Part shown: one piece after another, positions 341-30,110 of the stretch
Layout of the letters: the number at the start of each line of letters is the position of its first letter
Position numbering within the stretch: position 1 is the first letter of the stretch
From: Patescibacteria group bacterium
GTDB lineage: Bacteria > Patescibacteriota > Minisyncoccia > UBA10092
Assembly (NCBI GenBank): GCA_043812515.1
Contig: JBDRMC010000007.1
Location: forward strand, 1-39,010
Length of the DNA: 39,010 bases
Direction of reading: 5' to 3'
Program-made: the position numbers and the translations under genes
Notes under the pieces: generated by a model
What the model was told of the DNA's origin: nothing
Databases searched by the model: none
Seen by the model: only the letters and a program-made list of their open reading frames with translations

Positions 341-3604
<3,264 letters not shown>

Positions 3605-27271: not shown

Positions 27272-27272
27272 C

Positions 27273-27304
27273 ATTTGACAAATCGCATAGAAATATGCGA
27301 TTTT
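27273..27304 (+). terminator. Terminator module, copy 2 (identical to 22228-22259)
   Basis: Same 32 bp; similarity continues for about 12 bp downstream (TTGATT.A.CAA). Confidence 0.8.
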
Positions 27305-27327
27305 TGATTAGCAAATATGGTTCTTAC

Positions 27328-27611
27328 GCAGGGAGCCAAAAAACGATGCCTCAAGGAATGCCTCAAGAGAGAAGACTTGCTTGCGCCTTGTTGATGGTGA
27401 AGTAATTCGCGTTCAGGTGGAGCGCGAAATTGGAGGATGAGTTCACCAATGGTATAGATGTCTTCCAGGAGATGTTACTTGTCGCAGTGACGGCATAACA
27501 TCGTTCCAAAGGAAAGCCAAGGTGCAAAAAAGGGCTTACCGATAAGGGGACGCCCATACCAACTTTCCTCTCCCTGCAATAAAATATTACCCCCGCTTAG
27601 CGGGGGTTTTT
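27328..27611 (+). ncRNA. Candidate structured non-coding RNA ending in an intrinsic terminator (class unknown)
   Basis: No credible ORF in any frame. Visibly more GC-rich than other intergenic DNA here. Hairpins at 27396-27447 and 27471-27502. Possible long-range pairs 27450-27455/27556-27561 and 27328-27335/27570-27577. Terminator at 27590-27611. Confidence 0.35.
27590..27611 (+). terminator. Rho-independent terminator CCCCCGC-TTA-GCGGGGG plus TTTTT
   Basis: 7-bp GC stem and T-run. The same stem-loop recurs at 31029-31043. Confidence 0.85.
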
Positions 27612-27654
27612 ATTTACAACTTTAGCCAAATTAGCTAAAGTACTTAAAACGGCT

Positions 27655-28179
27655 ATGAAAAGTAAAGAAAACAATTTTGCATACATTGATGGCGCTAACC
27701 TACATAAGGGTGTAGCAGAATTAGGTTGGAAATTGGATTATAGGCGATTTCGCGTGTGGTTACGGGATAAATACAATGTTCAAAACGCATATCTTTTCAT
27801 TGGCCTTGTTCCAGACAATAAAGATCTATATACGAGCTTGCAGGAAATGGGTTATTTGCTGGTATATAAAGAAGTAACTTATGACGGCACTGGAAAAGTA
27901 AAAGGCAATTGTGACGCCGAACTAGTGCTTAAAGTTGCTGTAGATTATTATGAAAAGCAATTTAATAAAGCGGTTATTGTGGCAAGCGATGGCGATTACG
28001 CTTGTTTGGTTAAGTTCTTGAAAGAAAAGAGCGCGTTTCTATCTTTGGTTTCTCCCAGCAACAAATGTTCTTATCTTTTAAGAAAGTTAAACATTCCTAT
28101 TGTTTATTTAGATGCGAAGAAAAGTAAGTTTGATCGACAGGTTTATAACGAAAAAGCCCCCATTAAGGACAAGCCTTAA
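27655..28179 (+). CDS. NYN-domain (LabA/PIN-like) putative ribonuclease, paralog 1
   Basis: FAYIDGANL, ELGWKLDYRRFRVWL, LFIG, KGNCDAELV, ASDGDY: NYN/LabA-type motif set. Confidence 0.8.
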   Translation: MKSKENNFAYIDGANLHKGVAELGWKLDYRRFRVWLRDKYNVQNAYLFIGLVPDNKDLYTSLQEMGYLLVYKEVTYDGTGKVKGNCDAELVLKVAVDYYEKQFNKAVIVASDGDYACLVKFLKEKSAFLSLVSPSNKCSYLLRKLNIPIVYLDAKKSKFDRQVYNEKAPIKDKP

Positions 28180-28191
28180 CAGGGTCTTTTT
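28151..28191. terminator. Bidirectional hairpin overlapping the NYN-1 stop codon
   Basis: CCCATTAAGG-ACAAG-CCTTAACAGGG stem with an A-run upstream and a T-run downstream. Confidence 0.6.
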
Positions 28192-28206
28192 CATAATGAT
28201 ATTTAC

Positions 28207-28234
28207 AGTATAGCAAGCGTTTGCTAAAAGTCAA
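28207..28234 (-). promoter_or_regulatory. Conserved minus-strand promoter-like box: TTGACT, 16-nt spacer, TATACT, pointing into the NYN-1 3' end
   Basis: Both hexamers and their flanks are conserved with 28986-29013 while 7 nt of spacer differ. Confidence 0.5.
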
Positions 28235-28274
28235 CACTTATCCACAATGATAAATTTATTAAAATTCCTAAACC

Positions 28275-28352
28275 ATGCTCTCAATTTTAATAATAATCGG
28301 GGTGGTGGTTGTGGGGATTATTGTCGCCATCATCATCAATTCCGGCGAATAA
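28275..28352 (+). CDS. 25-aa hydrophobic peptide MLSILIIIGVVVVGIIVAIIINSGE
   Basis: ATG..TAA. Paralog at 29466-29546, differing by 6 synonymous and 4 conservative substitutions. A strong terminator follows. Confidence 0.55.
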   Translation: MLSILIIIGVVVVGIIVAIIINSGE

Positions 28353-28395
28353 TAACACTCCAACATTCTGCAGAATGTGAGAATGTTATTTTTTA
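28351..28395 (+). terminator. Rho-independent terminator
   Basis: AATAACA/TGTTATT outer stem, inner 16-nt perfect palindrome ACATTCTGCAGAATGT, then TTTT. Confidence 0.8.
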
Positions 28396-28434
28396 TTCTG
28401 TAGAGAATTTGTTAAAATAAAATAAAACAAAAAC

Positions 28435-28941
28435 ATAGATACAAAAGAAAACAATTACGCATTTATAGATAGCCAAAATTTAAACCTAAGCATTCGAGAA
28501 CTTGGGTGGAAACTTGATTGGCGCCGATTTCGAGTGTATCTAAAAGAAAAGTATAACGTTACAAAAGCCTTTTTATTTATTGGTTTTGTCGAGGGCAATA
28601 ATGATCTCTATAAATCACTTCAAGATGCCGGTTTTATTTGTATTTTTAAACCAACTTTAAAATATAAAGATGGAACTACAAAGGGAAATTGTGACGCGGA
28701 GTTTGTATTGCAAGCGATGATTGAGTACCCAAATTATAGAAAAGCTGTTATGGTAACCGGAGATGGAGATTTTTATTGTCTGGCAAAATATTTAATTGAA
28801 AATAAAAAACTGGAAGTCATTGTCGTGCCCAACAGGGACAAATTTTCCGCCTTATTGAAATTCAAAATCTGCCGTCCATTTCTTCGATTTATGAATGATT
28901 TGAAGGATAAATTGGAGTATAAAAAAGAAAAGACCCTATAA
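28435..28941 (+). CDS. NYN-domain paralog 2 without a canonical start codon at the homologous position (possible pseudogene or non-canonical start). The track's GTG at 28534 would remove the N-terminal IDxxNL motif.
   Basis: The frame is open from 28426 and reads ..IDTKENNYAFIDSQNLNLSIRELGWKLDWRRFRV, aligned to the paralog 1 N-terminus. There is no in-frame ATG/GTG/TTG before 28534. ATA at 28435 sits where paralog 1 has its ATG. Confidence 0.7.
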   Translation: MDTKENNYAFIDSQNLNLSIRELGWKLDWRRFRVYLKEKYNVTKAFLFIGFVEGNNDLYKSLQDAGFICIFKPTLKYKDGTTKGNCDAEFVLQAMIEYPNYRKAVMVTGDGDFYCLAKYLIENKKLEVIVVPNRDKFSALLKFKICRPFLRFMNDLKDKLEYKKEKTL

Positions 28942-28968
28942 GGACAAAACCTTATAGGGGGATCTTTT
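28921..28968. terminator. Bidirectional hairpin overlapping the NYN-2 stop codon
   Basis: CCCTATAAGG-ACAAAA-CCTTATAGGG perfect 10-bp stem with an A-rich run upstream and TTTT downstream. Confidence 0.65.
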
Positions 28969-28985
28969 CCGTTGGTGATATTTGC

Positions 28986-29013
28986 AGTATAGCAGATATT
29001 CGCTAAAAGTCAA
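28986..29013 (-). promoter_or_regulatory. Second copy of the minus-strand TTGACT, 16-nt spacer, TATACT box
   Basis: Same geometry and same distance from the hairpin as 28207-28234. Confidence 0.5.
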
Positions 29014-29054
29014 CACTTATTCACAGGTCGGGGGTCATTATAAAAAATAAATTT

Positions 29055-29453
29055 ATGGAAAATTATAAGGGCGTAATAATTGAAGAAAGTTTAGAAAATA
29101 AAGACGTTTTAAAAGAGGTTAAGATTTTAGAAACTGAGGTTGAGCCGGTGACTAGCGAGCATGAAACTCCTTGGCTTAAACAGTGGACTTTGCATACTGT
29201 AGAAATTTCTGAAGATAATGCGGAGGCGATTGCCGAAAAAATAAGCCATGCGCTAGATAGGGGACATGGCGCTTCTTGGTATGCGGATTTTAAAAATAAT
29301 GAAACGCATTTTATAATTTTCCGCGATAAAGTTTTTAAGATAGATAGAAAAAGTAAAGAACAATACGACAAAGCGAAAGAATATGGAATTTCTTTAGGAA
29401 TTCCCGAGCATCAAGTTGATTTTCATCCGGATATTAAAGAATGGGAAAGATAA
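29055..29453 (+). CDS. Hypothetical acidic protein (132 aa)
   Basis: Clean ORF between the conserved box and the second peptide gene. No family recognised. Confidence 0.6.
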   Translation: MENYKGVIIEESLENKDVLKEVKILETEVEPVTSEHETPWLKQWTLHTVEISEDNAEAIAEKISHALDRGHGASWYADFKNNETHFIIFRDKVFKIDRKSKEQYDKAKEYGISLGIPEHQVDFHPDIKEWER

Positions 29454-29465
29454 AACCCCTAAACC

Positions 29466-29546
29466 ATGCTCTCAATTTTAATAATAATCGGGGTGGTGGT
29501 TGTTGGGGTTATTGTGGGTATAATTGTTAATTCTGGAGATAAATAA
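29466..29546 (+). CDS. 26-aa hydrophobic peptide MLSILIIIGVVVVGVIVGIIVNSGDK
   Basis: Paralog of 28275-28352. The identical upstream CCTAAACC and first 38 coding nt are shared. Confidence 0.55.
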   Translation: MLSILIIIGVVVVGVIVGIIVNSGDK

Positions 29547-29550
29547 AAGG

Positions 29551-29559
29551 TGGTATAAT
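29551..29559 (+). promoter_or_regulatory. Extended -10 TGGTATAAT
   Basis: Exact recurring motif, 36 nt upstream of the ATG at 29595. Confidence 0.45.
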
Positions 29560-29594
29560 AAACTCAAGAATGGGGATTATAATTAAAAAAATTT

Positions 29595-29798
29595 ATGAAA
29601 AAAAGCGACATGGTTAGGGGAGTGGCGGAGGCGGGGGTTTGGTATGTTTTTATATACTATTTCCTCTATGCCTTGAAAAACTCTGTAGAACTCTGGCAGG
29701 CGGCTTTGGTTCTTTTGGTCTTGGCGTATGTCGGCGTTTGGGTTTGCCCGTGGGTCCGCTACACCGACAGCTGGCGCAAAATGATGGGCGGGGAATAA
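29595..29798 (+). CDS. Small two-TM membrane protein (67 aa)
   Basis: Two hydrophobic helices rich in aromatic residues. The overlapping alternative frame 29639-29854 is less plausible. Confidence 0.5.
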   Translation: MKKSDMVRGVAEAGVWYVFIYYFLYALKNSVELWQAALVLLVLAYVGVWVCPWVRYTDSWRKMMGGE

Positions 29799-29831
29799 AG
29801 GTCGATTATAAATTATTAAATTATCATATAT

Positions 29832-30110
29832 ATGGACTCAGTAAATTCGCATAAAGTGGGTATAGTGTTTGGAGGGATGATGGCTATTGTTCATGCCGTT
29901 TGGTCGCTCATGGTTTTGTTGGGAATGGCCAAGCTGTTCATGGATTGGATTTTAGGTTTGCATTTCTTGAGTTTCCAATACAGTATTGACCCGTTTGCAT
30001 TTTTAAGCGCCTTAATGCTTGTTATTGTAGCCGGTGTATTTGGCTATATTGTAGGATATATTTTCGGCTGGCTCTGGAATTTGGCTCACCGCACATCGCA
30101 CGGCCAGTAG
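29832..30110 (+). CDS. Small three-TM membrane protein (92 aa)
   Basis: Three hydrophobic segments. Confidence 0.55.
   Translation: MDSVNSHKVGIVFGGMMAIVHAVWSLMVLLGMAKLFMDWILGLHFLSFQYSIDPFAFLSALMLVIVAGVFGYIVGYIFGWLWNLAHRTSHGQ

Follow-up and report, generated by a model that had tools for sequence, protein, structure and literature searches.

Known small membrane proteins that bind larger ones include KdpF (29 aa), AcrZ (49 aa), MgtS (31 aa), and CydX (37 aa), and short ORFs dominated by Ile, Val, and Leu codons are known to encode branched-chain attenuator leader peptides, such as IlvL and IvbL of E. coli. The type I toxins of enterobacteria are a further group of short membrane peptides, among them Ibs/Sib (Ibs being 18-19 aa long), ZorO, Ldr, TisB, and ShoB (PMC2887945). 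Fozo et al. 2010 defined candidates for such toxins as proteins of less than 70 aa with a transmembrane region, a polar C-terminus, and a tendency to duplication, encoded at loci with at least 400 nt upstream and at least 250 nt downstream free and with similarity between duplicates that reaches beyond the ORF (PMC2887945).

Two ORFs in the window analyzed here, a 39,010-nt stretch of DNA that homologue names also assign to Patescibacteria (the Candidate Phyla Radiation), encode peptides with the size and the predicted membrane-spanning character of these toxins, being 25-26 aa long with an uninterrupted 18-residue core of I, L, V, G, and A. The tails found among the copies (NSGE, NSGDK, NFGDN, and NSEDK) are likewise polar, as well as acidic and very short, with little bulky or basic character. 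The arrangement of the loci is different: the gaps to neighboring genes are 12-95 nt, the similarity between copies covers the ORF and at most 14 nt upstream of it, and no RNA antitoxin gene is present at the peptide loci, while one encoded elsewhere in the genome is conceivable. Here we present evidence that the two ORFs are constrained genes and weigh what their products may do.

The two ORFs and the encoded peptide

The positions of both ORFs and of the elements around them are collected in Table 1. The ORFs lie in a repeat pair (28260-28355 and 29451-29546) that is 84% identical over 96 nt. Their translations as given in the original prediction are exact, and alignment and codon comparison confirmed the pattern of differences that it had described. 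The eight bases 5' of the ATG (CCTAAACC) and the first 38 coding nt are identical without a mismatch, and the 75 aligned coding nt contain 12 nucleotide differences, nine of which fall at third codon positions. Six codons differ in a purely synonymous manner (V13, V17, I19, I20, S23, and G24), and the four replacements (I15V, A18G, I21V, and E25D) are all conservative. By the Nei-Gojobori method this amounts to eight synonymous and four non-synonymous differences, with a pN/pS of 0.18 and a distance-corrected dN/dS of 0.13 (Fisher p = 0.0018). A degenerate pattern for the peptide N-terminus matches these two ORFs alone in the window and found nothing in 100 shuffles, and no other intergenic ATG ORF of 18-45 aa in the window reaches a mean hydropathy of 2.

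Table 1. Positions in the window of the two peptide genes, their flanking elements, and the neighboring features discussed in the text
Feature	Coordinates	Strand	Description
First NYN 3' module	28146-28240	-	
Antisense promoter of the first module	28234-28206	-	TTGACT-N16-TGCTATACT
DnaA-box-like site	28238-28246		TTATCCACA, perfect
Conserved block 5' of copy 1	28260..28274	+	TAAAATTCCTAAACC; homology of four copies starts here
Copy 1 (W1)	28275..28352	+	25-codon gene, peptide MLSILIIIGVVVVGIIVAIIINSGE
Hairpin within the copy 1 ORF	28297..28345	+	
Imperfect palindromic hairpin and T-run 3' of copy 1	28352..28395	+	Likely intrinsic terminator
Second NYN paralogue	28429-28941		
Second NYN 3' module	28921-29019	-	
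Antisense promoter, second copy	29013-28985	-	
132-aa cytosolic ORF	29055..29453	+	Ends 12 nt before copy 2
Conserved block 5' of copy 2	29451..29465	+	TAAAACCCCTAAACC; first TAA terminates the 132-aa ORF
Copy 2 (W2)	29466..29546	+	26-codon gene, peptide MLSILIIIGVVVVGVIVGIIVNSGDK
Extended -10-like element	29551..29559	+	TGGTATAAT; between copy 2 and the next gene; common to L002; putative promoter
67-aa ORF	29595..29798	+	Predicted two-helix membrane protein, 3' of copy 2
Motif 5' of the 92-aa gene	29797-29822		AAAGGTCGAnnATAAAtTATTA
92-aa membrane protein gene	29832..30110	+	41 homologues in Patescibacteria

The peptide opens with Met-Leu-Ser, continues into an 18-residue Ile/Val/Leu core that carries G9, G14, and A or G at position 18, and ends in a slightly acidic polar tail of 4-5 residues. 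Ile, Leu, and Val make up 16 of the 25-26 residues, and the core is uninterrupted over its 18 residues. No copy departs from G9 or G14, and position 18 has a small residue (A or G) throughout, the A18G replacement keeping one four positions after G14. A small-xxx-small spacing flanked by Ile and Val is a classic transmembrane helix-packing pattern. Hydropathy and composition are in line with the single transmembrane helix and short polar tail that had been predicted for both copies.

Further copies and constraint on the reading frame

A metagenome scan yielded two contigs with the peptide gene, L001 and L002. The L002 locus is the orthologue of the copy 1 locus, with an NYN gene, a hairpin, and a 50-nt element followed by the peptide MLSILIIIGVVVVGIIVAIIINSEDK, and in L001 the gene for the peptide MLSILIIIGVVVVGIIVAIIVNFGDN is followed directly by a gene homologous to the 92-aa membrane gene of the window. 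Contigs carrying the closest homologue of the 92-aa protein provided three more full copies (L025, L027, and L028) and a 3' fragment (L026), with further synonymous changes. Neither a strict nor a loose degenerate DNA pattern found a match in 185,579 species-representative genomes, and the looser pattern found none in viral contigs. Curated families and called proteins also contain no match to the peptide; in the called proteins of a 5.8-billion-sequence collection there was none at E <= 10 to a query of four concatenated variants, a search that is uninformative because gene callers rarely call ORFs below 90 nt. L028 does include one called gene of 26 residues, at a contig edge.

Selection was assessed on six full-length copies, which represent five distinct DNA sequences from closely related organisms. 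Across these six copies 18 sites vary, 13 of them at third positions (binomial P = 8.5e-4), and every full-length copy keeps both the frame and the position of the stop. Of the variable codons among the first 22, eight differ only synonymously and three exchange I for V or A for G, with non-conservative change confined to residues 23-26 in the tail. For diverged pairs, pN/pS is 0.11-0.20 in the peptide frame and ~1-2 in the other two forward frames, and the alternative forward and antisense frames contain stops or non-conservative changes. The constraint is, by these measures, specific to the peptide frame, and the alignments identify a bona fide coding small ORF under frame-specific purifying selection with no frameshift or stop. 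The relatives, in which the original prediction had proposed to look for frameshifts, stops, or a lack of synonymous bias, thus favor coding, and its view that the peptides are translated and constrained agrees with the dN/dS of ~0.13-0.18 (p = 0.002), the additional metagenome copies, and the conserved frame.

The extent of the homology points in the same direction. An alignment of four loci shows similarity from ~14 nt 5' of the ATG to the stop codon, and in L025 the shared 5' sequence is only ~5 nt. Every copy has an in-frame stop 2-3 codons 5' of the ATG, so the ORF cannot be longer. With the homology confined to the ORF and the 5-14 nt that precede its ATG, the comparison gives good support to a translated micro-gene encoding a single-pass membrane peptide, and we regard it as very likely that the product is a real, translated membrane peptide. 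The two ORFs in the window would then be paralogous copies of a genuine protein-coding micro-gene, and the selected unit would be the ORF with at most ~14 nt upstream, behaving as a portable cassette.

By synonymous distance the copies fall into two loose lineages, (copy 1, L002) and (copy 2, L001-type), with copy 2 closest at synonymous sites to the L001-type copies that lie directly 5' of the 92-aa gene. These distances indicate that both paralogues are older than the split of these organisms and that both have been retained. The hairpin within the copy 1 ORF (-23.1 kcal/mol, z -4.9), in which GGN/GUN (Gly/Val) codons pair with C-ending Ile/Ala codons, follows the same division. It is present in L002 and absent in L001, the matching region of copy 2 (29488-29536) folds at -4.4 kcal/mol (z +0.4), and it is a lineage-specific and not a family feature. 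The codons involved are C-ending in copy 1 and L002 (GTC GCC ATC ATC ATC TCC GGC), whereas those in copy 2 and L001-type copies, which have no hairpin, are A/T-ending; the synonymous differences between the paralogues are therefore non-random in direction.

No copy varies in the first 23 coding nt (window 28275-28297), which contain six synonymous sites, and the third positions that follow vary at 13 of 18 (P = 0.0034). This stretch would represent an extra constraint at the nucleotide level and could be an RNA-pairing site. Alternatively, selection may simply favor an AU-rich initiation region free of structure in a genome that is largely Shine-Dalgarno-free. Most genes of this genome have no Shine-Dalgarno sequence, and the lack of one here is therefore no evidence against translation. 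The block 5' of copy 1 contains a -10-like TAAAAT that ends 9 nt before the ATG, together with an in-frame TAA; the hexamer may serve as the -10 element of a near-leaderless mRNA, and its T6 is not kept in copy 2 or L001.

Copy 1 had been predicted to possess its own strong terminator. A hairpin (28352-28389) followed by T6 does exist, and the 55 nt that contain it (28346-28400) have a folding energy of -13.8 kcal/mol (z -4.25), but the structure is moderate rather than strong, and it is not conserved in the family. A simple terminator scan of the window did not list it. L002 has a perfect 18-bp version of this hairpin without the T-run, and copy 2, L001, L025, and L027 have no hairpin after the ORF.

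Related palindromes (AACAyTCyMACATTC ... GAATGTKRGARTGTT) adjoin the peptide gene in three contexts (window 28352-28389, L002 554-594, and L025 198-231). In copy 1 and L002 the palindrome is downstream of the gene, whereas L025 has it upstream, with the left arm formed by the end of an HTH gene, and the copy 1 palindrome resembles a hybrid of the L002 and L025 versions. No further copies of the palindrome were found in the window or the fetched loci. A reading of these palindromes as attC-like was rejected, as the core GTTRRRY is unmatched. A repeat resembling a target-site duplication around copy 2 (29437-29453 and 29566-29582, 14/17 identical) is absent in other contexts and was treated as chance.

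Genomic contexts and the NYN 3' module

The peptide gene occurs in about five contexts in a narrow Patescibacteria clade, within a variable island. Upstream of it lies an NYN gene in copy 1 and L002, the 132-aa cytosolic ORF in copy 2, and an HTH gene with the palindrome in L025; in L001 and L027 it follows a promoter and a hairpin leader and is divergent from a restriction-modification operon. The downstream neighbor is an NYN paralogue for copy 1, the 67-aa membrane ORF and then the 92-aa gene for copy 2, and another small membrane ORF in L002, and the 92-aa gene is directly 3' of the peptide gene in L001, L025, L027, and L028. Copy 1 is separated from its neighbors by 95 nt upstream and ~82 nt downstream, measured to the ATA codon where the alignment of the second NYN gene begins, copy 2 by 12 nt upstream and 48 nt downstream, and the L001 gene by ~38 nt downstream.

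Relatives of the 92-aa gene at 55-76% identity (L003-L014) have no peptide gene upstream, and the closest lineage alone has it. The same is seen around the NYN genes, where relatives at 78-93% identity (L015-L024) keep the NYN 3' module described below and have no peptide. A 130-aa homologue of the 92-aa protein, P0005, was considered as a possible fusion to the peptide and dismissed, its N-terminal extension being unrelated. The motif AAAGGTCGAnnATAAAtTATTA is found ~30 nt 5' of the start of the 92-aa gene in all relatives (in the window, in L001 at ~3335-3360, and in L003, L007, L010, and L012), and in L015 it stands 5' of a different membrane gene. In L010 the motif is downstream of a TGGTATAAT box and thus probably lies in the 5' UTR.

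Searches with the 67-aa ORF gave no Pfam, NCBIfam, or PADLOC match, and the 132-aa ORF has no match in Pfam or among PDB sequences. The latter belongs to a family of 539 cluster representatives (E <= 1e-3), some of which are fused to NUDIX, ASCH, DUF5680, or cupin domains, pointing to an uncharacterised cytosolic domain with a role connected to nucleotides or small molecules. Elsewhere, members of this family were not found linked with the peptide.

What lies between the Gmad2-domain gene and the 92-aa gene is not the same in L001 (341-3132) as in the window (27272-29831). L001 carries a restriction enzyme-like ORF at this place, together with a 614-aa fusion of a LexA N-terminal domain to an N6-adenine methyltransferase, and the window has both peptide genes along with two NYN genes and the 132-aa and 67-aa ORFs. 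AbiEii, an MmeI-like restriction-modification gene, Bro-N, and MazE are among the cargo found 3' of NYN in other relatives. This chromosomal slot is a variable, defence-island-like region and, with restriction-modification genes in L001 where the window has NYN genes, the peptide is placed within a variable island.

The two NYN (LabA-like nuclease) genes of the window share 43% amino-acid identity and have a saturated dS, compared with a dS of ~0.6 for the peptide copies. This difference rules out a recent tandem duplication of an NYN-peptide block, so the peptide must have been copied or homogenised long after the NYN genes were duplicated. In the second NYN paralogue an ATA stands at 28435 where the first has an ATG, with no canonical start before a GTG at 28534, although ~170 codons are open and match the NYN domain; this second gene has either a non-canonical start or a recent loss of its start.

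All NYN genes examined (43-93% amino-acid identity; from the window, L002, L015, L018, L019, L020, and L022) share the same three-part module at their 3' ends. It consists of a bidirectional terminator hairpin over or after the stop codon (95.5% paired, with compensatory changes in 3/11 pairs), a conserved ATCAYTATGA, and a minus-strand promoter, TTGACw-N16-TAyACT, with invariant hexamers and a free spacer. In the window this promoter points away from the peptide gene and into the NYN terminator hairpin. The hairpin, the conserved element, and the promoter together predict a cis-antisense RNA of 50-55 nt directed against the 3' end of the NYN mRNA. The module could be an RNA-controlled nuclease module, which would be more unusual than the peptide itself. 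This antisense RNA was also tried as a trans antitoxin for the peptide and discarded, as its duplex energies with the peptide mRNA are no better than those of shuffles.

A DnaA-box-like site, present in perfect form once in the window and as TTATTCACA in copy 2, is located 2-5 nt beyond the -35 hexamer of the NYN antisense promoter. It also occurs in L015, L019, and L020, and in L001 (~3124-3132) a plus-strand TTGACT-N17-TAAAAT promoter follows it immediately. Its role may be that of a shared operator or of a -35-like element in a back-to-back promoter.

Candidate functions and comparison with known systems

We consider an accessory small membrane protein, rather than a type I toxin, to be the probable identity of the peptide. 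Judged from its composition, it would insert into the cytoplasmic membrane as a single span, where the small-xxx-small face formed by G14-x-x-x-A/G18, flanked by beta-branched residues, may pack against the peptide itself or against a partner helix. The cassette usually lies directly 5' of other small membrane-protein genes and is probably co-transcribed with them; a co-oriented neighboring small membrane protein is a plausible partner. The peptide would then act as a small membrane accessory or modulator, presumably without toxicity. A small membrane regulator, the other option named in the original prediction, is possible too. Some observations stand against this assignment. There is no consistent partner gene, and a dedicated subunit would not usually be missing beside distant homologues of the 92-aa gene, as this peptide is. 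An accessory, duplicated hydrophobic peptide of narrow distribution in a variable region is also what a toxin would look like, and the sample is a small one, with five distinct DNA sequences from closely related organisms.

The resemblance to type I toxin-antitoxin systems, which had been raised for both ORFs, would involve a peptide that depolarises or permeabilises the membrane and an antisense or trans sRNA that blocks translation by acting on the invariant 5' end of the mRNA. The length below 70 aa, the one transmembrane segment, the polar C-terminal tail, and the nearby duplicate all match the published description (PMC2887945), and the accessory, narrow distribution in a variable island near nuclease and restriction-modification genes is also what such a toxin might show. 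The architecture of the loci is nevertheless unsupportive, with no shared RNA gene, promoter, structure, or family match. The similarity between copies stops at the ORF, leaving no shared flanking RNA gene, and the short gaps have no room for long UTRs or an sRNA gene. A terminator and promoter scan, combined with a reading of the flanks, identified no antisense promoter or terminator common to the copies, and the sole solid antisense promoter faces away and accompanies NYN genes that have no peptide. Although the invariance of the first 23 nt, synonymous sites included, would suit an RNA target, no site complementary to the peptide mRNA exists elsewhere in the 39-kb window. The mRNAs of copy 1 and L002 are strongly structured (z -4.6 and -4.2) because of the hairpin within the ORF, but those of copy 2 and L001 give z -2.1 and +0.1, so that there is no conserved mRNA structure, and Rfam produced no match at gathering or permissive thresholds. 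No match at cut-off was obtained to Ibs, Ldr/Fst, Hok, TisB, or other Pfam, NCBIfam, or PADLOC families, the best being chance hits to unrelated transmembrane segments (E 0.16-5). A shared RNA partner is absent and there is no conserved function at the RNA level, and we consider a type I-like toxin unlikely. A more specific form of this idea, in which the ~95-nt unit is a near-leaderless micro-cassette for a membrane-active toxin that moves among promoter-proximal island sites and is silenced through its 23-nt 5' end by a remote RNA, appears to us distinctly unlikely. If true, this may be a first for type I-like toxins in the Candidate Phyla Radiation; a literature search for type I toxins in Patescibacteria found no paper.

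Two further explanations were considered. The peptide could be a regulatory leader or upstream ORF with many Ile, Val, and Leu codons, at which ribosome stalling controls a downstream terminator or genes in the manner of ilv or leu. Ile, Val, or Leu codons account for 16/25 of the ORF, which is upstream of other genes in every context, and in copy 1 and L002 its stop codon runs into a hairpin, with a T-run in copy 1. Yet the hairpin after the ORF is confined to these two copies and the L002 version has no T-run, there is no conserved alternative antiterminator pairing, and the downstream genes encode unrelated small membrane proteins or an NYN nuclease rather than functions in amino-acid biosynthesis, transport, or tRNA charging. 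The defining features of an attenuator, a conserved terminator after the ORF and a downstream operon related to branched-chain amino acids, are thus missing. Attenuation would moreover need none of G9, G14, the small residue at 18, or N22, all of which are conserved, and we regard a leader as very unlikely. A peptide of 25-26 residues would still lie within the ribosome exit tunnel at termination, which makes a membrane-insertion sensor of the MifM type unlikely as well. The other explanation is that there is no gene at all, and that the ORF is open by chance in a repeat without coding function (RNA hairpin or recombination sequence) or in the decayed remnant of a larger gene's N-terminal membrane anchor. 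This would accommodate the strong hairpin within the ORF in copy 1 and L002, the palindromic hairpins next to three copies, and the lack of a called protein homologue for the concatenated query in the 5.8-billion-sequence collection. It is difficult to reconcile with third-position bias, conservative replacements, and an intact frame, all specific to one frame, with the coincidence of the homology block and the ORF boundaries, and with the absence of the internal hairpin from copy 2 and L001-type copies. ORFs below 90 nt are normally skipped by gene callers in any case, and L028 does have a 26-residue call, so we judge this explanation highly improbable.

Genes this short escape annotation pipelines, and in the uncultivated Patescibacteria small membrane proteins are essentially unexplored. 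The present case indicates that comparative sequence data alone can establish a 25-codon ORF as a constrained gene, and a defined peptide is now available for synthesis or expression. If the peptide were a toxin, RNA-controlled membrane toxins would extend to a phylum for which the literature search brought up no example. As a helix-packing accessory it would add another lineage-specific micro-protein to those known, useful and unsurprising.

A comparison with the described systems shows likenesses to each of them alongside some clear disparities. Like IlvL and IvbL, the peptide gene is a short Ile/Val/Leu-rich ORF, in two copies with a hairpin directly after it. Unlike those leaders, its hairpin is unconserved, no biosynthetic operon lies downstream, and small residues and a polar tail are conserved beyond need. 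With toxins of the Ibs/Sib type it shares a very short, extremely hydrophobic single helix with a polar end, the lack of annotation, a narrow range, and the presence of more than one copy within ~1.2 kb. In contrast to them, it lacks an antisense or divergent sRNA gene and any family match, its copies have no similarity beyond the ORF, and its intergenic gaps are very short. KdpF, AcrZ, MgtS, and CydX are each tied to one partner operon, whereas the small membrane neighbors of this peptide vary, there is no sequence similarity to it, and, in contrast to KdpF-type proteins, it is missing from most relatives that have the neighboring membrane genes. The peptide nonetheless resembles these four in size, in its one helix, in its co-oriented position beside membrane genes, in its purifying selection, and in its small-residue packing motif. 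The peptide joins the lineage-specific single-helix micro-proteins, a class that is very large and well known.
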